Positions 5,035 to 63,646 of a stretch of 64,000 nt of DNA are shown piece by piece. Every line of letters begins with the position of its first letter. Within the stretch, counting starts at the first letter, position 1. Location: assembly GCF_044324875.1 (NCBI RefSeq), contig NZ_CP172185.1, one strand, 5' to 3'. The stretch is from Escherichia coli (GTDB lineage: Bacteria > Pseudomonadota > Gammaproteobacteria > Enterobacterales > Enterobacteriaceae). The position numbers and the translations under genes are program-made. The notes under the pieces were generated by a model. The model ran no database searches and had not been told where the DNA came from. It was given only the letters and a program-made list of their open reading frames with translations.

Positions 5035-5315
5035 GGGTTAATTCCCTTTGGTAAGATTTTTTCGACATCGGTATGTGGGCGGGGAATAACGTGCACGGCT
5101 TTTACTTCGCCGACGTTACGCGCAGCTGCGGCACCTGCGTCTGTTGCCGCTTTTACCGCCCCGACATCACCACGAACGATGACGGTCACCAGCCCGGAAC
5201 CTATTTTTTCGTAGCCGACCAGCAAAACATTTGCCGACTTCACCATGGCGTCTGCGGCCTCTATGGCGGCAGTTAAGCCTTTGGTTTCTACCATTCCTAA
5301 CGCTTCTTGTTGCAT
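5031..5315 (-). CDS. pduA: Microcompartment shell protein PduA
   Basis: 94 aa [33 protein letters not shown]..., near-identical to the PduA I remember; first gene of the pdu operon. Confidence 0.9.
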
Positions 5316-5826
5316 AAAGACCTCGCCTGGATTTTTTTGACGATATGACTATAAAAAAAAGCGAGGAAAAAGAATGGCTGACTTAATCGGCTAATGAGAA
5401 AAATTAATAGAGAACAAATATTATAAAATTGCTTTTATGAACTATATGTTGTTAATTTATTAGTTGTTTTGTGGATATTTCAATGTGAATTAATTGCGTT
5501 GGCTAGTGAGTTTAATCGCGAGTAATATTTTGTGGGGGGGTGTTCGAGGAAGGAACTGTGATATTTGTTTCAATTTTATTATGTCATGATGGCAATTTTT
5601 TATTATAAAAGTTTGGCGGTAATTATTACTTTCAACACTGATTAACGCTGTGTTGCATGATTCGGTAATGACAATAATTTGTTATGTTAGCACGATTTTT
5701 ACACGAGTCTGTCATGCATGTTAGCAATATTTTCTGCAGAGCAATTTTTTATAGTTGCGCTCGATATATACAACAATCAGCGCATAGTTGGCTGATAAAG
5801 AAAAACTCCGTAAAGAAGGTGTCACT
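5316..5826. promoter_or_regulatory. AT-rich divergent control region between pduA and pduF
   Basis: About 500 bp AT-rich intergenic DNA between divergently oriented pduA and pduF; this is where the pdu and pduF-pocR promoters lie in Salmonella. No individual site was identified. Confidence 0.4.
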
Positions 5827-9351: not shown

Positions 9352-10091
9352 GTAAATTATTTTGGGCGATGCTCTCTTTTATTACGCGTCTGCCTGTGCC
9401 GCGTCGCTGGTCCCAGGGACTGGATTTCGAGCATTATTCTCGCGGTATTATTACTTTTCCTTTAATTGGTTTATTGCTTGGCGCGATTAGCGGGCTGGTC
9501 TTCATGGCGTTGCAGGCATGGTTTGGCGTACCACTGGCGGCACTGTTTAGCGTACTTGTGCTGGCGCTTATGACCGGGGGATTCCACCTGGACGGCCTCG
9601 CCGATACTTGTGATGGCGTATTTTCTGCACGTAGCCGCGATCGCATGTTGGAAATCATGCGTGATAGCCGTTTAGGTACCCACGGCGGTCTGGCATTGAT
9701 TTTTGTTGTACTGGCAAAGATTTTGGTGTTAAGCGAGTTGGCTTTGCGTGGCGAACCGATCCTTGCATCGCTGGCGGCAGCATGCGCGGTCAGCCGCGGG
9801 ACTGCCGCATTATTGATGTATCGTCATCGTTATGCCCGGGAAGAAGGGCTTGGCAATGTGTTCATTGGCAAAATTGATGGGCGACAAACCTGCGTCACAC
9901 TCGGTTTAGCCGCTATTTTTGCTGCTGTATTATTGCCAGGTATGCATGGTGTGGCTGCTATGGTGGTGACGATGGTGGCGATTTTCATCCTCGGTCAGCT
10001 TCTCAAACGTACGCTGGGCGGGCAAACCGGCGATACGCTGGGAGCAGCCATAGAGCTTGGTGAACTGGTCTTCCTGCTGGCACTGCTATAA
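9348..10091 (+). CDS. cobS: Cobalamin synthase
   Basis: Start [17 protein letters not shown]... overlapping the cobU stop (ATGA); polytopic membrane protein matching CobS. Confidence 0.95.
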
Positions 10092-10102
10092 AGAGACGTG
10101 AC

Positions 10103-11182
10103 ATGCAAACACTTGCCAATTTACTGAATACGATCCCTGCCATCGATCCTGCCGCTATGTCGCGTGCACAACGGCATATTGACGGGTTACTCAAACCTGT
10201 TGGTAGCCTGGGAAGGCTGGAGGCGCTTGGCGTACAACTGGCGGGAATGCCGGGGTTGAATGGCATACCGCATGTGGGCAAAAAAGCGGTACTGGTTATG
10301 TGTGCCGATCACGGCGTCTGGGAGGAAGGGGTCGCTATTTCCCCAAAAGAAGTCACAGCCATTCAGGCTGAAAATATGACCCGCGGAACAACCGGCGTGT
10401 GTGTGCTGGCAGCACAAGCGGGCGCTAACGTCCACGTAATTGATGTTGGTATTGATACTGCTGAGCCTATCCCCGGGCTTATCAACATGCGTGTCGCACG
10501 AGGTAGCGGCAATATTGCTTCAGCTCCGGCAATGAGTCGCCGTCAGGCTGAAACGTTGCTTTTGGACGTCATATGTTATACGCGGGATCTGGCAAAAAAC
10601 GGTGTCACGCTGTTTGGTGTAGGTGAATTGGGGATGGCAAACACGACACCGGCAGCGGCGATAGTGAGCACAATCACTGGCCGGGCTCCTGAAGAAGTGG
10701 TTGGGATTGGCGCAAACCTGCCGACAGATAAACTGGCTAATAAAATTGATGTTGTGCGACGGGCGATTACGTTGAATCAACCAAATCCGCAGGATGGCGT
10801 TGATGTCCTGGCAAAAGTGGGTGGATTTGATTTGGTCGGAATGGCTGCCGTGATGTTAGGCGCTGCGTCCTGCGGTTTACCGGTGTTGCTGGATGGATTT
10901 CTTTCTTATGCTGCTGCGCTCGCAGCCTGCCAGATGTCTCCTGCAATCAAACCGTATCTCATTCCTTCTCACCTGTCGGCAGAAAAAGGGGCGCGTATAG
11001 CGCTGTCACATTTGGGGCTGGAGCCTTATCTCAATATGGAGATGCGTTTAGGTGAGGGGAGTGGCGCAGCTCTGGCGATGCCCATCATCGAAGCTGCTTG
11101 TTCGATATACAACAACATGGGCGAACTTGCTGCCAGTAATATTGTTCTACCGGGGAATACGACTTCTGATTTGAACAGTTAA
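10103..11182 (+). CDS. cobT: Nicotinate-nucleotide--dimethylbenzimidazole phosphoribosyltransferase
   Basis: 359 aa [35 protein letters not shown]..., matching CobT. Confidence 0.95.
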
Positions 11183-18054: not shown

Positions 18055-19509
18055 TTACCGGAACGGCGGCTCATTAAATGTTCGTAATTTACGTGAATGC
18101 AGTCGGTCGCCTTCTGCGCGCAGCAAATCGATCGCCCGAATGCCAATTTGCAGGTGTTCGGAAATAGCGCCTTCATAAAAACGGTTAGCCTGACCGGGAA
18201 GTTTAATCTCACCATGCAACGGTTTATCTGAAACACACAGTAGTGTCCCGTATGGCACGCGGAAACGATATCCTTGCGCGGCAATGGTTGCACTTTCCAT
18301 ATCAATTGCTACGGCCCGGCTTAAGTTAAAACGAAGTGCAGAAGCTGAGTAACGTAATTCCCAGTTCCTGTCATCTGTGGTTACCACAGTGCCAGTACGT
18401 AGCCGCTGTTTAACTTCCTCACCGGGCCTGCCGCTGACTAACTTGGTAGCGTCATAAAGCGCACGTTGCACTTCAGCAATGCTCGGAATAGGAATATCGG
18501 GCGGCAGTACCGCATCAAGAACGTGGTCATCGCGTAAATAAGCGTGTGCAAGTACATAATCTCCAATGGCCTGGCTTTCACGTAAGCCACCACAGTGACC
18601 AATCATCAACCAGACATCCGGGCGTAGCACCGCCAGATGATCGCAGATGGTTTTAGCATTTGACGGTCCCACGCCAATATTCACCAGAGTAATACCCTGA
18701 CCATCGGCGGTAATTAAATGCCATGCTGGCATCTGGTGTTTTTTCCATGCAAGGTCGGAAATGGCTTCTTCTGGCGCTTCGGTTTCGGCGGTGATCCAGT
18801 TCCCGCCAGCACAAGAAAGGGCAATGTAGGGACTATCAGGGTCGAGGATCTGGCTGCATCCCCAACGAACGAATTCATCCACATAACGTGTGTAGTTGGT
18901 AAACAAGACGAACGGCTGAAAATGTTCAACTGGCGTACCGGTATAATGGCGCAACCGCGCGAGGGAAAAATCGACGCGGCGCGCATCAAAATGCGATAGC
19001 GGGGAGAATTCAGTTGGATGATAAATGCCGTCTGCAGTTTCATCGCCAATTTGCGCCAGTTCTGTTGTCGGGAAATAGCGAGTTAACCCAGCGCTCATTG
19101 AGCGATCAAGTGTCAATTCAGAGCCATCGATGACATAAGGATAAGGGATTTCATGCTGCGAGGGTTGCACCGAGATATGCGCACCATAATCCTGATACAG
19201 CAACGTAAGTTGTTCATTGAGATACGAACGAAAGAGAGTAGGGCGAGTAATCGTGGTGGTGTAGCTGCCTGCGTGGGTAAAACGACCAAATGCGCGCGTT
19301 TTGGGGGGATTGGTTGTGCTACCGTCCCAGGTTACGGTCAGTGATGGATAGACAAAAAGACCTTGTTTGCGGGCGTTTTCATCAGGTAATTCGCCACTTG
19401 TAATATATTTGCCAATGGCGTTGCGTAATGCGACTACAGATTGCTCATACAGCGCGTCGAGTTTATCCAGTGCCTGAGCTGGGGTCAGACCGGAGCCCTT
19501 ATTATTCAT
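18055..19509 (-). CDS. amn: AMP nucleosidase
   Basis: ORF track frame 18055..19614; start moved to internal MNNKGSGLTPAQALDKL... giving 484 aa as I recall for Amn. Confidence 0.9.
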   Translation of the reverse strand: MNNKGSGLTPAQALDKLDALYEQSVVALRNAIGKYITSGELPDENARKQGLFVYPSLTVTWDGSTTNPPKTRAFGRFTHAGSYTTTITRPTLFRSYLNEQLTLLYQDYGAHISVQPSQHEIPYPYVIDGSELTLDRSMSAGLTRYFPTTELAQIGDETADGIYHPTEFSPLSHFDARRVDFSLARLRHYTGTPVEHFQPFVLFTNYTRYVDEFVRWGCSQILDPDSPYIALSCAGGNWITAETEAPEEAISDLAWKKHQMPAWHLITADGQGITLVNIGVGPSNAKTICDHLAVLRPDVWLMIGHCGGLRESQAIGDYVLAHAYLRDDHVLDAVLPPDIPIPSIAEVQRALYDATKLVSGRPGEEVKQRLRTGTVVTTDDRNWELRYSASALRFNLSRAVAIDMESATIAAQGYRFRVPYGTLLCVSDKPLHGEIKLPGQANRFYEGAISEHLQIGIRAIDLLRAEGDRLHSRKLRTFNEPPFR

Positions 19510-19610
19510 GTGTGTCTCCTGTTCCATACAATTACCGCACATCCGATAGTATGTCACAGAAATGTGAAACAAAAGTGTAAGGCGAAGATCGGATGATCTT
19601 CGCCAGACTA

Positions 19611-20927
19611 TCAAGCGCGTAGATTATCTTTCATCAACAAAGCGGTCATTGCGGAAATCAGGCATCCAGCCAGCAAATAAATGGCGACGCTATGCCAGTT
19701 CCCGGCAAAGTAAGTGATGAGTGCAGCGGCAATAAAAGGTGTAAATCCACCGCCAACCACACTGGCAACCTGATAACCGACTCCTGCACCACTATAGCGA
19801 TAACTGGCACCAAACATTTCGGTAAACATCGGTTGTTGCACACACACCACCATGTCATGCGCAATGTTTGCCAGCATTATGGAGAAGAAAACTATCCAGA
19901 AAATAGATTGTGTTTCAAGCGCCATAAAGAAAGGAAATGCGCTCAACGTTCCGATTAACGCGCCTGTGATATAAACCCTGCGGCGACCAAAACGATCGGC
20001 AAGCCAGGCAAAACAGGGAATGGTCAGGCAGCTTAATCCACCTACCAGCAAACCAATATTAAGGAAAAGTTCGCGCGGTAACCCCATATTCTGGGTTGAA
20101 TAATTAAGTGCGAAGGCGGTAACGATGTACATCGTCAGCAACTCGCACAGTCGTAGCGCAATAATCTTCAGGAAAGCACCGGGATGTCGTAATAGTGCTT
20201 CGATAACCGGAATGCGTTTTTTCGCGGCCGCTTGATTATGTTGCTGTTGTTCGAATTCCGCGGACTCCTCCATGCCATTACGCACCCACAATGCTCCCAG
20301 TACCAGTACGATGCTAAACAGGAAAGGAATGCGCCAGCCCCAGCTTAAAAACTGTTCGTCAGTCGTCATCATACTGATCAATGAAACCAGTCCAGTTGAA
20401 AGCAGTAAACCTACACCGTAGCCAACTTGTACACCGCTACTGTAAAAGGCTTTTTTATTTTTCGGTGCACTTTCAACGGAAAGTAACGCTGCGCCTCCCC
20501 ATTCGCCGCCGACGGCAAATCCCTGTATGGCACGCAGCGTCACCAGTAAAATGGGGGCCCACCACCCAATGGTCGAGAAGGAAGGAAGAATACCAATCAA
20601 GGCTGTCGCGATGCCCATCATCCAGACGGTCAGCATTAACATGCGCTTACGTCCCAGCCGGTCGCCAAAGTGACCGAAAATGACACCGCCGAGCGGACGG
20701 AAAAGGAATCCGACGCCAAAGGTGGCAAATGCGGCGAGCGTTCCCATAGCCGGGCTTACTTGCGGGAAAAACTCGCGATTAAACACCAGTGCGGCGGTAA
20801 TGCCATAGAGTAAAAAATCATACCAGTCGACGACGGCACCAGCGAAACTGCCTAACGCAGCTCGTCGGGCGCGACTTAACGAAAGCGTCCCTTCATCGGG
20901 ACGAGTGGAGATGAGCGTGGAGTCCAT
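19611..20927 (-). CDS. shiA: Shikimate transporter (MFS)
   Basis: 438 aa ORF with 12 predicted transmembrane segments; size and sequence match ShiA. Confidence 0.9.
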   Translation of the reverse strand: MDSTLISTRPDEGTLSLSRARRAALGSFAGAVVDWYDFLLYGITAALVFNREFFPQVSPAMGTLAAFATFGVGFLFRPLGGVIFGHFGDRLGRKRMLMLTVWMMGIATALIGILPSFSTIGWWAPILLVTLRAIQGFAVGGEWGGAALLSVESAPKNKKAFYSSGVQVGYGVGLLLSTGLVSLISMMTTDEQFLSWGWRIPFLFSIVLVLGALWVRNGMEESAEFEQQQHNQAAAKKRIPVIEALLRHPGAFLKIIALRLCELLTMYIVTAFALNYSTQNMGLPRELFLNIGLLVGGLSCLTIPCFAWLADRFGRRRVYITGALIGTLSAFPFFMALETQSIFWIVFFSIMLANIAHDMVVCVQQPMFTEMFGASYRYSGAGVGYQVASVVGGGFTPFIAAALITYFAGNWHSVAIYLLAGCLISAMTALLMKDNLRA

Positions 20928-21241
20928 AATGATCCTGTTTGTACTGTCTTTTTATAATTAGTATGGAAAAGGTAACTCACATTGCCGTCGATCTATAAAC
21001 GAACCTTATGAGACTACCTCGACAGAGCGCATCTGCAAATGATTTTATGGCTGATTAACGGCAACATGAAAAATTCGCTGGAAGATGAAAGTACAGGAGT
21101 TGCTGGTGTTGTTTAAGGATTAAGCAGAGCACCCACAGGTTCGAGATATGAAACATAAAAGTCCGCATATGCACAAAATGGCACCCTGATGAGTCTGATA
21201 GACTGCATTGCATTATAACCAGTAGGGAGGCGAGGTTAATT

Positions 21242-22294
21242 ATGTTTTTAGCATCATTGTTGAGACGTATTGCATTTAGTTACTACGATTATAAAGCTAA
21301 TAATTTCAATATTGGAAAAACAGAGTTTGTTGTCATCCATATTCCCGATCAAATTGGCGATGCTATGGCCATCTTTCCAGTTATTCGGGCGCTTGAACTG
21401 CATAAAATTAAGCATCTTTTAATTGTTACTTCGACTATTAATTTAGAAGTCTTTAATGCGCTCAAACTTGAACAGACTAAATTAACATTAGTCACAATGA
21501 CTATGCAGGATCACGCAACATTAAAAGAAATAAAAGATTTAGCGAAGAACATAACACAGCAATACGGTACGCCGGATCTTTGTATAGAGGCGATGCGTAA
21601 AAAGAACCTGAAAACAATGTTATTTATCAGTCAGTTGAAAGCAAAAACGAATTTTCAGGTTGTCGGTTTAACCATGAAGTGCTATTCCCCTTTGTGTAAG
21701 ACTGCGTCCCGGATGGATCAGAATCTCCGGGCTCCCGTACCCATGACATGGGCATTTATGATGCGTGAGGCGGGTTTTCCAGCAGTCAGGCCAATATATG
21801 AATTGCCATTAAGCGAGGATGCACTCGATGAGGTGCGCGAGGAAATGCGATCGTTAGGATCTTACATTGCGCTTAATTTAGAAGGTAGCTCGCAGGAGCG
21901 TACATTTTCATTATCGATTGCAGAAAATCTAATAGCAAAAATTCAAAGTGAAACAGATATACCAATAGTGATCGTTCATGGACCCAAAGGGGAAGATAAA
22001 GCCAGGGAACTAGTGAATAGTTATAATAATGTCTACCGTTTATCCTTGTCACCCTCGATTAAACGTTCAGCAGCAATCATAAAAGATGCTTATATCGCAA
22101 TAACACCTGACACCTCAATATTACATATGGCAAGTGCCTATAATACCCCCGTTGTTGCAATTTATGCTGATTACAAAACGCGATGGCCCGCAATGGCCGA
22201 TGTCTCGGAGTCAGTCGTCGTTGGGCAAAAAATTGACAATATAAGTCTGGATGAATTCGCAAAGGCATTAAAAAGTGTTTTGGCGAGAATATGA
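21242..22294 (+). CDS. yeeL: Glycosyltransferase family 9 (heptosyltransferase-like) protein, intact
   Basis: 350 aa uninterrupted ORF between shiA and yeeJ, at the position of the yeeL pseudogene of K-12 (from memory). Confidence 0.7.
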   Translation: MFLASLLRRIAFSYYDYKANNFNIGKTEFVVIHIPDQIGDAMAIFPVIRALELHKIKHLLIVTSTINLEVFNALKLEQTKLTLVTMTMQDHATLKEIKDLAKNITQQYGTPDLCIEAMRKKNLKTMLFISQLKAKTNFQVVGLTMKCYSPLCKTASRMDQNLRAPVPMTWAFMMREAGFPAVRPIYELPLSEDALDEVREEMRSLGSYIALNLEGSSQERTFSLSIAENLIAKIQSETDIPIVIVHGPKGEDKARELVNSYNNVYRLSLSPSIKRSAAIIKDAYIAITPDTSILHMASAYNTPVVAIYADYKTRWPAMADVSESVVVGQKIDNISLDEFAKALKSVLARI

Positions 22295-22873
22295 GGCAGT
22301 ATTTATGCATATTAATGCCGATCTGTTATGAACGGTGGTGTCATCAATACTCTGTGGCTGGTCAATCATTACAGAAAGCCAGTCTTTGGAGCAAAGCTGT
22401 ACTCACCGGATACGATCATAGTCACATCGAACGCGATTCTGGCGGAACCAAAACATTGTAATGTATTTCACCATCATAAATAAGGCAATCTAAACTTTAA
22501 CTCCCGTTAACTGCCATACATTATTATGAGTGGCGCTGATGTAATTTGTAATAGTGAAATATGAATTAATGTTGTTTGTACGTCCTAACATATCTTCCTT
22601 CTTGATGTAATTAGCTAAACATTAACGTGATTTGACTACATAGCAACAATGGTAGCTATCAAAAATAGCTCATGTACTTCGTTTCCTGCTGGCATGGAAC
22701 AGGTGGTTATATCGTGTGTGAAAGCTTTTATAAAAAGTAAGGAGGCTCGACTATCTTTAAACTAACAGGGGGTATGGGAAAATGCAGGTATATTAATGGA
22801 GCGTTTGACAGCAAACGAATATAAAAGCAGAGCGCCCCGAATGGAGCACTCTGTAAGAAAATATAGCGAAAAA

Positions 22874-31489
<8,616 letters not shown>

Positions 31490-31801
31490 GCTTACCTTCC
31501 CTGAACGAGCTAACATAAATGCGCCCTTTCTAGCACAGCGAAAAAAAGTAAATCCTGATAGCAATATGATTGAAAATTAATAACTTTTCGTTAAGCAGTT
31601 TTGGGTGTGAGTTGCAAGGGGGAGACTACTGAATTACTCAAGTTTTATAATCGAGGGGAAAATGGTGATGGCGTCCATAGCAAAACGCCCTCAACCATTA
31701 AGGTCGAGGGCGCTTAAGATGTCAAAAACCCGCTATCCGTTAAAAAGCAATGCTCAACTAAGGTCAGTGACATTGGGCTAAAAAAGCGAATTTTTAGAAT
31801 T

Positions 31802-32867: not shown

Positions 32868-32957
32868 CGGAGAGATGCCGGAGCGGCTGAACGGACCGGT
32901 CTCGAAAACCGGAGTGGGGGCAACTCCACCGGGGGTTCAAATCCCCCTCTCTCCGCC
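32868..32957 (+). tRNA. serU: tRNA-Ser (anticodon CGA)
   Basis: GGAGAGATGCCGGAGCGGCTGAACGGACCGGTCTCGAAAACCGGAGTGGGGGCAACTCCACCGGGGGTTCAAATCCCCCTCTCTCCGCCA: long-variable-arm class II tRNA with anticodon CGA. Confidence 0.9.
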
Positions 32958-33002
32958 AAAATTCAATCACTTATACATCATTAAGTCAGTGACAAAAATC
33001 AC

Positions 33003-33038
33003 ACTTGGAATTACTTGGAATATTTTCTTGGAATATTT
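33003..33038. repeat. Three direct CTTGGAAT repeats next to the attachment site (candidate integrase arm-type sites)
   Basis: CTTGGAAT at about 33003, 33013 and 33026, with GGAATATTTT occurring twice; lies between the tRNA-Ser 3' end and the integrase 3' end. Confidence 0.35.
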
Positions 33039-34036
33039 TCAGGTAACGGGACATCAAGTGTTGGTGAAACTTTAACCTTCCGGTCATAGATTAGCACTTG
33101 CCCTTCGGTTTTGTGACCAGAGAAAAGTTGCTTATCCCGGCTGCTTCCTTCATAGTCTGAAATTCCTTTCGCCTTCAGATCATGAAAGGTGAAGTCGGTT
33201 AAAATACCTGAAACTTTGCCTGCGCGATTTCTTGCTTCTACCCACATTTCGTTAAAGCCTTTGTACATATATCGGTTGCCGTATTGATTGCTGATCACAT
33301 AGGCGGATTTTGGTAACTGTTTTGCTTTTTCGACCGCTGCCTGTAATCGTGGACTCCATGCTTTTATCTGTTTTTTCCCTGTTTTCCCTTGCTGGATAAA
33401 GATCCCGTCGTTTCCAATCTGCTCCCATTTCAGCGATAACACATCGGAAACCCTCGCTGCACACAGATAGGCAATTTCCATTGCGATAAAAACAGGAAGG
33501 GGTGCCACGCTTAATACTGCCTGGTATTCTTTGTCGGTTACATATCGTTCGCGGTTTTTGGCCTTGAATTTACTTACTCCTGCACATGGGTTAGCCTTCA
33601 CGTACCCTCGCTCATACCCCCAACTGTAAACACGGGACATACTGCTTTTTTCATGGTTGGCTTGCGTTTTACTCTGTTCCCCTCTTTTGTCCATGTATCG
33701 ACGGATGTGTTCTGGTTTTATGGAATCCGCTGGTACCTTACCGAATACGGCAAGCAACTTTTTTTGATGTTGCAGATAATCTTTTTGTGTTCTTGGACTA
33801 AGGTCACTGTAACAGGCGCTGGCGAGGAATTTTTCCCACAAGCGACCGAATGTCATTGCACGATCGCGATTATTTACAGTTTCCTCATACTTTTTCCATA
33901 AAGCAGCTAAACCATCCTTGATGGCGGTTAGTGTTACAGATTCTCTGGATGTTGGTTTCCATACATAACTATATTTATTTGGGTATACATTTGGAGGTAA
34001 TTTTTCGTGTTCAGGATTTTTCCTTCGTCTTCCCAT
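33011..34036 (-). CDS. int: Tyrosine recombinase (phage integrase)
   Basis: 341 aa ORF adjacent to the tRNA and reading toward it; C-terminal region has tyrosine-recombinase-like R...HxxR...Y spacing (…FTFHDLKAKGISDYEGS…HKTEGQVLIYDRK…). Confidence 0.85.
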   Translation of the reverse strand: MGRRRKNPEHEKLPPNVYPNKYSYVWKPTSRESVTLTAIKDGLAALWKKYEETVNNRDRAMTFGRLWEKFLASACYSDLSPRTQKDYLQHQKKLLAVFGKVPADSIKPEHIRRYMDKRGEQSKTQANHEKSSMSRVYSWGYERGYVKANPCAGVSKFKAKNRERYVTDKEYQAVLSVAPLPVFIAMEIAYLCAARVSDVLSLKWEQIGNDGIFIQQGKTGKKQIKAWSPRLQAAVEKAKQLPKSAYVISNQYGNRYMYKGFNEMWVEARNRAGKVSGILTDFTFHDLKAKGISDYEGSSRDKQLFSGHKTEGQVLIYDRKVKVSPTLDVPLPENIPRKYSK

Positions 34037-60400: not shown

Positions 60401-63400
60401 GTGAGTGTGGCGACATTACGTGAACTGATTATTAAAATCTCGGCAAATTCCCGGTCATTCCAGTCAGAGATCTCCCGGGCTTCGCGTATGGGGCAGGATT
60501 ACTACCGTACCATGCAGAACGGAGGCCGACAGTCCGCTGCTGTATCCCATGAAATGCGGCGTGCACTGGCAGAAGTGACGGATCAGATAAATACAGCTAA
60601 ATCTTCGGCACTGAACATGGCGGGGGCATTTGCCGGGGCTTTTGCTACCGGTCATCTTATTTCTCTCGCCGATGAGTGGAATTCAGTAAATGCCCGTCTG
60701 AAGCAGGCCTCACAGTCCAGTGATGATTTTCAGTCATCACAGCGTGAATTAATGGCGATCAGCCAGAGAACGGGGACGGCTTTTTCTGATAACGCCAGCC
60801 TTTTTGCCCGCTCTGCAGCTTCCATGCGGGAGTATGGTTACAGTTCTGAGGAGGTACTGAAAGTCACCGAGGCGATCTCCACGGGCCTGAAATTATCCGG
60901 TGCCAGTACAGCAGAAGCCAGTTCGGTGATCACGCAGTTCAGTCAGGCTCTGGCGCAGGGAGTGCTGCGCGGTGAAGAGTTTAACTCGGTGAATGAGAGT
61001 GGCGATCGTGTTATTCGTGCTCTGGCTGCGGGAATGGGAGTTGCCCGTAAGGATCTGAAGGCCATGGCGGATAACGGAAAGTTGACCGCCGATAAGGTTG
61101 TTCCTGCACTGATTAGTCAGCTTGGGGCATTACGTGATGAATATGCGGCAATGCCTGATACGGTTTCATCCTCTGCAACCAAAGTTGAAAACGCCTTTAT
61201 GGCCTGGGTTGGTGGTGCGAACGAGGCAAGCGGAGTGACGAAGACGCTCTCCGGTGTGCTGAATGGTATTGCAGGCAATATTGACACCGTGGCAACCGCT
61301 GCCGGTGCTCTGGTTGCCGTCGGGGTAGCCCGATATTTTGGCAATATGGCGTCGTCTGCTGGATCTGCAACTGCCGGATTAATTACTGCAGCCAGAAACG
61401 AAGTGGCTCTTGCTGAAGTGCAACTTCGGGGGACACAGATAGCAACCGCCAGGGCGCGTGCGGCGGTTTATCGTGCGCAACAGGCGGTTGTTGCTGCTCG
61501 CGGTACCGAAAGGCAGGCCGCAGCAGAAGCGAAGCTGACAGCTGCCCAGGCGTCACTTACCCGTAATATTGCGGCCAGAACAGCGGCACAGACAACGCTG
61601 AATAATGTTACGTCAGTGGGGAGTCGTTTATTAAGTGGCGCGCTGGGGCTGGTTGGTGGTGTGCCGGGGCTTGTCATGCTGGGGGCTGCGGCCTGGTACA
61701 CGATGTATCAGAATCAGGAGCAGGCCAGAGAATCTGCACGCCAGTATGCCGCAACAATCGACGAAATTCGCCAGAAAACGTCGGCAATGTCGCTTCCTGA
61801 AGCGTCAGATAATGAGGAAAAGACGCGACAGGCACTGAAGGAGCAAAACAGGTTAATTGACGAGCAGAAAAGTAAGATTAAATCCTTACAGGAAAAAATT
61901 GCTGGCTATCAGTATGTGCTGGCAAATCCGGGTTGGACAACCGATAACGGTTTTATGATTAACCACATGACGTCGGTAAAAACTGTCACAGAAGGGCTTG
62001 CAGAAGCAACAAATCAACTGGCAGTTGAACAGTCTCGCCTCACTCAAATGCAGGGCAAAGCGCAATCCATTCAGGATGTGCTTGCCGGGCTGGAGGAGCG
62101 ACGGGTGGCGTTGATCCGTCAACAGGCAGCGGAACAAAACAAAGCGTATCAGTCCCTGTTGATCATGAATGGGCAGCATACCGAGTTTAATCGCCTTCTC
62201 GGGCTCGGTAATGAATTACTTCAGCAGCGACAGGGGCTGGTGAATGTACCGTTACGGCTACCACAGGCAACCCTGGATGATAAACAGCAGACCGCACTGA
62301 ATAACAGCGAGCGCGAACTGGCTCTGTCCCGCCTGAAGGGGGAAGCCCGTGAGCGTGCCCGCCTGGGTTATGCTGCGGATGATCTCGGCTTTGTGGGAGA
62401 GGCGTATCAGACAGCAAGACTGAATTATATAAATAACTCACTGGATGCATGGCGAAATAACCAGGCAAATAAACCCAAAGCGCATAAAAAGACCGAAGCG
62501 GAAAAAACAGAAGATACTTATAAGCGACTGATTAAACAGCAAAAAGAGCAAATAGCACTGGCAGGGCAGAATACTGAACTGGCTAAGATGAAATATCAGG
62601 TCAGCAAGGGCGAATTATCAACCCTGTCAGAAGCGCAGAAAAAAACGCTTTTGCAGAATGCAGCACTCATCGACCAGAAAAAGATTCGTGAGCAGCTTGC
62701 TGCGTATGAGAGCAGTCTGGCGGACAGTAATGCCAGTGTCAGAGCATCAAATGAGGCTCAGTTACTGGGATATGGTGAAGGCTCACGGATGCGTGAACGA
62801 CTTCAGGAAATGTGGAGCATCCGGCAGGAGTTTGAGCAGAAAAATAACGAGCTACTGAGACAGTATCAGGCCGGAGAAATTGAAGAAGCCCTGTGGAAAC
62901 AGGAAAAATCTCTGAATGAAAAATATCTGGAAGAGCGTCTCAGCGATCAGCAGGATTATTATGCAAAGGCTGATGCTTTACGCAGTAACTGGAATGCCGG
63001 ACTCCAGGAGGGACTGACGAACTGGGCAGACAGTGCCACCGATTATGCTTCGCAGGCGGCAGATGCTGTCGTTTCCACTATGGACGGGCTGGTATCAAAT
63101 ATTTCCGATGCACTGGCCGGAAATGTTGTGGACTGGAGAAACTGGGGGAGTTCAATTCTCCAGGAAGTTTCAAAAATTCTGATGAACGCTGCCATCGTTA
63201 ACGGGCTGAAGTCACTTTCCAAAAGCATGTCCGGTGCCGGAGGATGGCTTGGTACAGTCGGCGACTGGCTTTCCGGTGCAGTGGCAAACGCAAAAGGTGG
63301 TGTTTATACATCGGCAAATCTGAGTGCTTACAGTAACACCATTGTGGATACCCCGACGTATTTTGCTTTTGCGAAAGGTGCCGGGCTGATGGGCGAGGCC

Positions 63401-63646
63401 GGGCCTGAAGCTATCATGCCACTGACTCGGGCAGCGGACGGCTCTCTTGGAGTCAGAGCCATTGGCAATGTGAATGGTGGCGGTGGATTTGTTTATTCTC
63501 CCGTGTATCACATCAGCATTCAGAATCAGGGGAGCAATGGCGAGATAGATGCGCGCTCAGCCAGGGGACTGGTGGATCTGATCGACAGCAGGGTTGTGTC
63601 AGTTATGCAGTCATCGCGTCGGGATGGAGGATTGTTGAGTGGGTGA
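60401..63646 (+). CDS. Tail tape measure protein
   Basis: 1081 aa, Ala/Gln-rich with long coiled-coil-like stretches, located after the chaperone pair. Confidence 0.85.
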   Translation: MSVATLRELIIKISANSRSFQSEISRASRMGQDYYRTMQNGGRQSAAVSHEMRRALAEVTDQINTAKSSALNMAGAFAGAFATGHLISLADEWNSVNARLKQASQSSDDFQSSQRELMAISQRTGTAFSDNASLFARSAASMREYGYSSEEVLKVTEAISTGLKLSGASTAEASSVITQFSQALAQGVLRGEEFNSVNESGDRVIRALAAGMGVARKDLKAMADNGKLTADKVVPALISQLGALRDEYAAMPDTVSSSATKVENAFMAWVGGANEASGVTKTLSGVLNGIAGNIDTVATAAGALVAVGVARYFGNMASSAGSATAGLITAARNEVALAEVQLRGTQIATARARAAVYRAQQAVVAARGTERQAAAEAKLTAAQASLTRNIAARTAAQTTLNNVTSVGSRLLSGALGLVGGVPGLVMLGAAAWYTMYQNQEQARESARQYAATIDEIRQKTSAMSLPEASDNEEKTRQALKEQNRLIDEQKSKIKSLQEKIAGYQYVLANPGWTTDNGFMINHMTSVKTVTEGLAEATNQLAVEQSRLTQMQGKAQSIQDVLAGLEERRVALIRQQAAEQNKAYQSLLIMNGQHTEFNRLLGLGNELLQQRQGLVNVPLRLPQATLDDKQQTALNNSERELALSRLKGEARERARLGYAADDLGFVGEAYQTARLNYINNSLDAWRNNQANKPKAHKKTEAEKTEDTYKRLIKQQKEQIALAGQNTELAKMKYQVSKGELSTLSEAQKKTLLQNAALIDQKKIREQLAAYESSLADSNASVRASNEAQLLGYGEGSRMRERLQEMWSIRQEFEQKNNELLRQYQAGEIEEALWKQEKSLNEKYLEERLSDQQDYYAKADALRSNWNAGLQEGLTNWADSATDYASQAADAVVSTMDGLVSNISDALAGNVVDWRNWGSSILQEVSKILMNAAIVNGLKSLSKSMSGAGGWLGTVGDWLSGAVANAKGGVYTSANLSAYSNTIVDTPTYFAFAKGAGLMGEAGPEAIMPLTRAADGSLGVRAIGNVNGGGGFVYSPVYHISIQNQGSNGEIDARSARGLVDLIDSRVVSVMQSSRRDGGLLSG

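Follow-up and report, generated by a model that had tools for sequence, protein, structure and literature searches.

The 64,000-nucleotide stretch of Escherichia coli DNA analyzed here (the window) carries an uninterrupted copy of yeeL, the intact orthologue of a gene that is a pseudogene in strain K-12. Judging from its match to glycosyltransferase family 9 (GT9), its predicted fold, its invariant motifs and its low dN/dS, the YeeL protein looks like an active, selected GT9 enzyme. Our best explanation, which we consider probable from the comparisons below, is that the window carries a functional allele of a cytoplasmic GT9 enzyme with a GT-B fold that takes part in accessory glycosylation of the LPS core or of a lipid-linked glycan, and not in modification of the neighboring adhesin YeeJ.

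Part of this was already known: thousands of E. coli genomes carry the annotation "glycosyltransferase family 9 protein" for yeeL, and the K-12 copy is on record as a pseudogene. The literature on yeeL that we found mentions it as an integration site, as an insertion marker or in mutation lists, and we found no functional study among these reports. The remaining interest is thus in a conserved and apparently functional GT9 enzyme that is missing from the classic laboratory lineages and has never been characterized.

The yeeL locus

The yeeL coding sequence runs from ATG to TGA at exactly 21242..22294 on the + strand (350 codons plus the stop), as the first-pass annotation had reported, and it is a solitary gene for a GT9-family (GT-B fold) protein. 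The position of its ATG agrees with the starts of orthologues from other genera, and a Shine-Dalgarno-like sequence, GGGAGGCGAGG (GGGAGG/GAGG), can be read directly at 21225..21235 (+), 6-11 nt before it. The gene has a low GC content of 0.38-0.43 (~0.39), against a host background of ~0.50.

Upstream lie the divergently transcribed shiA gene (19611-20927, - strand; in the ORF list, with MFS/Sugar_tr domains in the domain search) and, beyond it, amn (18055-19614, - strand; ORF list). The AT-rich region between shiA and yeeL (20928..21241, 314 bp) is the presumed home of the yeeL promoter; in a consensus scan, no sigma-70-like site turned up ahead of the yeeL ATG on the + strand, and the number of sites was that expected from shuffled sequence. 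On the other side, a 579-bp spacer (22295..22873, from ORF coordinates) separates the convergent stop codons of yeeL and yeeJ. Its first ~150 bp are common to most E. coli and the remainder is a minority allele; it also contains a terminator-like hairpin for yeeJ at 22853-22828 on the - strand. The yeeJ-type gene itself (22874-31564, - strand) encodes an inverse-autotransporter adhesin with an IAT_beta domain and 18 Big_1 stretches. The gene order amn-shiA-yeeL-yeeJ-asnT-mtfA-serU is identical in the window and in MG1655.

We also note that the yeeJ-type ORF is unusually long: counted from the first TTG it has 2896 aa, and from the ATG equivalent to that of K-12 ~2871 aa, compared with 2340 aa in MG1655. 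Its 3' end, together with most of the 579-bp spacer, is a minority allele that is covered to at least 80% in only 187-207 of 5426 genomes. This segment is 100% identical to that of the O158:H23 strain CFIAFB20140388, whose gene has been annotated as a pseudogene with an N-terminal truncation.

The window allele and the K-12 allele

The statement in the first-pass annotation that the K-12 locus is a pseudogene is accurate: MG1655 yeeL (b4497; formerly yeeL_1/yeeL_2, b1979/b1980) is flagged as such. It occupies the same shiA-yeeL-yeeJ locus and matches the window ORF in length (1053 bp). The two genes align without gaps or indels at the DNA level across all 1053 columns, and the matching flanking genes together with this colinear, high-identity alignment identify the window ORF as the intact orthologue of K-12 yeeL. 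About 43 of the 1053 nucleotides differ; these comprise 26 synonymous and 16 non-synonymous changes and the stop codon. The translated K-12 gene has one in-frame stop, at codon 235, which is TAA in K-12 and CAA (Gln) at 21944..21946 (+) in the window (DNA alignment column 703). K-12 yeeL is therefore a pseudogene through a single nonsense mutation (Q235*), not a frameshift. This exact alignment had been proposed as a check on the window gene, and the window allele has neither a frameshift nor a stop. E. coli B strain REL606 carries the same lesion as K-12, annotated as an "internal stop", and differs from K-12 yeeL at only two other positions. An O158:H23 strain has CAA at codon 235, as does the window.

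Prevalence and integrity in E. coli

Of 5426 complete E. coli genomes searched by megablast, 5342 have the yeeL locus and 5268 the gene itself (4939 at 80% coverage or more in one piece), a prevalence of ~97-98%. The K-12 TAA allele occurs in 765-768 genomes (exact 61-mer or 34-mer), or ~14% of the 5426, although such k-mer allele counts leave about half of the genomes unclassified, with another common SNP lying nearby. Its carriers include K-12 derivatives, C600, J53, strain C, REL606 (B) and various natural isolates. The intact allele was checked in a sample of six evenly ranked annotated genomes, namely O157:H7 SS17, E24377A, strain 447, 97_3250, O104:H4 2009EL-2050 and XYEH3314. In each of these six, yeeL is intact, as a CDS of 1053 bp with the annotation "glycosyltransferase family 9 protein". 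This near-universal presence, the TAA allele at ~14% and the six intact genomes out of six sampled establish that intact yeeL is the norm in E. coli and that K-12, B and C represent a minority lineage.

The first-pass annotation had implied that intactness set this copy apart. With the gene in 5268-5342 of 5426 genomes, intact in all six of those sampled, and the TAA allele in ~768, that significance does not hold. Through one nonsense codon in an otherwise conserved gene, the laboratory strains K-12, B and C are without a putative enzyme that ~85% of E. coli appear to retain. The window allele is identical to none of the complete genomes (best match 98.8%), and its protein shares 95% identity with the main E. 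coli cluster, which comprises 350-aa proteins (10,923 member sequences).

Further inactivations were found in the form of IS1 and ISSen4 insertions, truncations, deletions and truncated Shigella sonnei protein clusters. Since yeeL has been inactivated repeatedly (by the K-12 nonsense allele, by IS insertions and by the S. sonnei truncations), it is dispensable.

Protein family, fold and selection

YeeL matches the Pfam GT9 model PF01075 with 32.4 bits (cut-off 22; E = 7.4e-8) over residues 207-321 only, which belong to the C-terminal domain; this score above the gathering threshold bears out the GT9-like assignment of the first-pass annotation. The NCBIfam models for the individual LPS enzymes are not matched at their thresholds: heptosyltransferase I (TIGR02193) gives 39.7 bits against a cut-off of 185.3, heptosyltransferase II (TIGR02195) 21.6 against 134.6 and heptosyltransferase III (TIGR02201) 16.6 against 170.2. 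Searches of PDB sequences, with the single protein and with a family profile, gave marginal matches to WaaC and WaaF only (E 0.1-1), and TibC was absent from the matches even at E <= 10. Family assignment required comparison of folds. An AlphaFold2 model of YeeL (20 orthologues) has a pLDDT of 83.9 and a pTM of 0.83 and is confident except in the loop 141-163. Its top Foldseek matches are 3tov, WaaF and WaaC, and it has the two-Rossmann-domain GT-B fold with GT9 enzymes as its nearest solved neighbors.

Among the K-12 GT9 enzymes the best profile match to YeeL is WaaU, with which the YeeL family profile aligns over its full length by hhalign (27-350 to 34-349; probability 81%, E = 1.2e-5), whereas with WaaC it aligns over the C-terminal motif only. 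In a joint alignment of the YeeL relatives with K-12 WaaC, WaaF, WaaQ and WaaU, residues G39, D40, D290 and H295 are invariant, as they also are among 20 YeeL orthologues. The Gly39-Asp40 codons (21356..21361, +) lie in an invariant HIPDQxGDAM motif and align with Gly12-Asp13 of WaaC, and the Asp290-His295 codons (22109..22126, +) lie in a PDTSxxH motif in the C-terminal nucleotide-sugar-binding domain and align with WaaC Asp261-His266. Asp13 serves as the catalytic base of WaaC, in which D261 makes contact with the heptose.

WaaU (RfaK of K-12; putative ADP-heptose:LPS heptosyltransferase IV, acting on the outer core) has the GD and DT..H.A.AY..P..A.Y motifs in common with YeeL, but the two proteins are only ~17% identical, the YeeL loop 141-163 (with C147, C152 and SRMDQ) is missing from WaaU, and yeeL is found between shiA and yeeJ and thus outside the waa (rfa) core cluster, which in K-12 is elsewhere on the chromosome. 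Identity is lower still, 13-15%, to WaaC and WaaF (LPS heptosyltransferases I and II) and to the Veillonella GT9 structure 3TOV; given this and the NCBIfam scores far below cut-off, YeeL is not an orthologue of WaaC or WaaF. An exhaustive profile search for YeeL relatives among 1.84 billion representatives returned 1876 proteins at E <= 1e-3, of which 33 reached E <= 1e-30. By these sequence comparisons, YeeL is its own sharply bounded GT9 sub-family and not an orthologue of any characterized heptosyltransferase.

Residues C114, C147 and C152 and the SRMDQ sequence are invariant in the YeeL family and lie in or near the low-confidence loop 141-163 (residues 114-163 are encoded at 21581-21730 in the window). 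WaaC, WaaF, WaaQ and WaaU have no counterpart of this region, which could be an element specific to the YeeL family for binding an acceptor or a metal.

The dN/dS ratio of yeeL is 0.08-0.31 in measurable pairs, with values of 0.1-0.31 within E. coli and ~0.1 between genera, and 99 alignment columns are invariant across the 20 orthologues, whose identity goes down to 53%. Thus, yeeL is under purifying selection. These values bear on the alternative that yeeL is an intact yet functionally silent xenogeneic gene, H-NS-silenced or unexpressed, that is drifting to loss. Such a reading would fit its AT-richness, the lack of a consensus promoter upstream and the independent losses described above (the nonsense allele of K-12, B and C, the IS insertions, the S. 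sonnei truncations and the deletions). It is difficult to reconcile, however, with the low dN/dS at both depths, with catalytic motifs and 99 columns that have stayed invariant across genera, and with an intact gene in six of six sampled lineages, even beside a decayed yeeJ, and we regard a silent gene as quite improbable.

Relation to the adjacent yeeJ adhesin gene

The first-pass annotation placed yeeL beside a large adhesin gene and proposed from this that its product could modify a surface component. The placement is right, the YeeJ-type ORF being 579 bp away, and a surface component is still a plausible target; it is the adhesin as target that finds little favor in the data, an LPS or lipid-linked glycan being better supported.

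In the adhesin proposal, YeeL would be a protein heptosyltransferase that glycosylates its neighbor YeeJ, in parallel with the AAH/AIDA-I and TibC/TibA pairs. TibC and AAH, which belong to the BAHT family of autotransporter heptosyltransferases, do have a GT9-like GT-B fold and an adhesin-adjacent position, as YeeL has. Were YeeL one of them, its closest relatives would be TibC and AAH, and they are not: TibC ranks structurally well below WaaC, WaaF and 3tov, and it is missing from the PDB sequence matches noted above. Other hallmarks of the BAHT family are an iron-binding Cys motif and a dodecameric assembly; YeeL has its three invariant cysteines, two of which (C147 and C152) fall in the loop modeled with low confidence. 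Nor does yeeL share an operon or its inheritance with an autotransporter substrate gene. The two genes are convergent and do not form an operon. Of the six sampled genomes, all with intact yeeL, two have an intact yeeJ, one has a frameshifted copy and three have a decayed remnant. The yeeJ N-terminal region reaches at least 80% coverage in 2961 of the 5426 genomes (55%; the published yeeJ prevalence is ~40%, PMC5595812), compared with ~97-98% for yeeL. The presence and integrity of yeeL are independent of yeeJ.

YeeJ moreover promotes biofilm formation in K-12 backgrounds, where functional YeeL is missing, and the paper that describes this is silent on both yeeL and glycosylation (PMC5595812). 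In Pseudocitrobacter, the gene order amn-shiA-GT9-mtfA without an adhesin suggests that yeeJ was inserted beside a pre-existing yeeL, and five orthologue contexts besides this one are also without an adjacent adhesin. With convergent genes, intact yeeL next to decayed yeeJ, orthologues that have no adhesin neighbor and a YeeJ that works in K-12, the link that the first-pass annotation drew to the adhesin is not sustained, and we consider it highly unlikely that YeeL is a YeeJ glycosyltransferase.

Genomic contexts of YeeL relatives and the probable acceptor

Orthologues of yeeL occupy at least six different sites on chromosomes. An Escherichia variant of 73% identity has hchA and mtfA on its two sides and no yeeJ; the E. 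albertii orthologue is near yciA and ompW, another orthologue is between maeB and the eut operon, and the Erwinia persicina and Rosenbergiella copies lie downstream of unrelated MFS genes. The close orthologues (53-73% identity) are solitary genes outside LPS clusters, so the case for an LPS-type acceptor rests on more distant relatives. The nearest full-length out-group relatives, four proteins labeled P0108, P0109, P0111 and P0115, are encoded in surface-polysaccharide or LPS-type clusters. The gene for P0108 is flanked by GT2, GT4, another GT9, two Wzy_C, WecG and Bac_transf genes; that for P0109 has GT4, epimerase, GT2, Wzy_C, Bac_transf and GLF neighbors; that for P0111 adjoins Wzy_C, Bac_transf, WecG and GT4 genes; and that for P0115 is directly downstream of a GT8 gene. 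A fifth relative, P0136, from a metagenome contig (L013:1955-4288), is a protein of 777 aa in which an N-terminal Wzy_C domain (O-antigen ligase-type) is fused to a C-terminal YeeL-like GT9 domain. Since Wzy_C domains are also found in protein O-oligosaccharyltransferases, this fusion by itself does not decide strictly between LPS and a protein as the target. The P0136 gene adjoins a GT4/polysaccharide-deacetylase gene.

Taken with the WaaU-like profile match, the out-group relatives in LPS-type clusters and the Wzy_C fusion point to a lipid-linked glycan or the LPS core as the acceptor of YeeL, to which we give somewhat better than an even chance on these comparisons. The comparative context thus counts against adhesin glycosylation and for an LPS-type acceptor, and it narrows the range of worthwhile experiments.

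An MFS gene is next to the yeeL homologue in several genera, divergent in E. coli and Pseudocitrobacter (shiA) and co-directional, ~155 bp upstream, in Rosenbergiella and Erwinia persicina (19611-20927 in the window, L004:8674-9846 and L011:8636-9841). A common transporter partner for YeeL was considered and rejected, as the three MFS proteins have no significant similarity to each other; this adjacency may be coincidence or an insertion-site preference.

Mobility of yeeL and evidence from phages

The low GC content, the multiple insertion sites and a copy in a phage tail gene cluster suggest that yeeL is a mobile accessory gene. The last of these is in Erwinia aphidicola (CP188307.1, here L003), where a homologue 62% identical to YeeL is encoded at 10001-11134 (+) as an opposite-strand insert between sheath and tail-fiber genes. 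Its GC content is 0.41-0.43, against 0.60-0.70 in its surroundings, and its location is the classic one for a moron. The surrounding segment (L003:3800-17700) is a cluster of P2-like tail, baseplate and lysis genes, along with ogr and a gene for a CI-type repressor. As no head genes were called in it, this segment may represent either a tailocin or a degraded prophage.

These observations raise the question of whether YeeL is the product of a mobile "moron"-type gene that masks a phage or tailocin receptor, in the manner of lysogenic conversion or as self-immunity, and that has become fixed in the E. coli chromosome. The low GC content relative to the host background, the spread of orthologues over six or more chromosomal sites and the Erwinia copy inside a P2-like tail and lysis cluster all agree with such an origin, as does a full-length match of YeeL to phrog_27389 (756 bits; function unassigned there). 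Against it, a phage-related context was found for only one of eight orthologue contexts, and a tblastn search of 50,697 GenBank phage records gave no YeeL match. The PHROG family probably stems from prophage predictions with loose boundaries in the vicinity of the asnT and serU integration sites. Bona fide carriage of yeeL by phages was rejected on the strength of that empty tblastn search, despite the PHROG match. The moron reading as a whole we judge to be unlikely, and it would refine the LPS-modification explanation rather than exclude it; a receptor-masking role of YeeL is a reasonable sub-hypothesis of the latter.

Proposed function of YeeL

We return to the explanation that we prefer, an accessory enzyme of LPS-core or lipid-linked glycosylation. 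In this proposal yeeL would have been acquired horizontally as a low-GC, solitary gene. By analogy with other GT9 enzymes its donor would most likely be of the ADP-heptose type, and YeeL would work at the inner face of the inner membrane, where it would add one sugar to the LPS core or to another lipid-linked glycan. The product would be a non-essential decoration, for which the laboratory lineages K-12, B and C have lost the enzyme, and YeeL would not be a dedicated modifier of the YeeJ adhesin.

A bolder form of this proposal, which we offer tentatively and consider rather unlikely, is that YeeL is an active accessory sugar transferase (for example, a heptosyltransferase) that makes a non-stoichiometric decoration of the LPS core or an envelope glycan, and that this decoration has been overlooked. 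If this were true, its absence from the canonical laboratory-strain structures would follow from the Q235* lesion that K-12, B and C all carry. Such a decoration could then modulate receptor recognition by phages or tailocins, at which the Erwinia tail-cluster orthologue hints.

A prophage-like region at serU

Farther along the window, the gene for tRNA-Ser(CGA), serU (32869-32958), is directly followed by a phage integrase gene (33011-34036) and then by a gene for an Exo VIII/Rv2179c-like exonuclease. From there a run of + strand ORFs extends up to a lambda/HK97-type tape-measure gene at 60401-63646. The region from 32869 to 64000 thus looks like a lambdoid prophage that is integrated at serU and runs to the end of the window.
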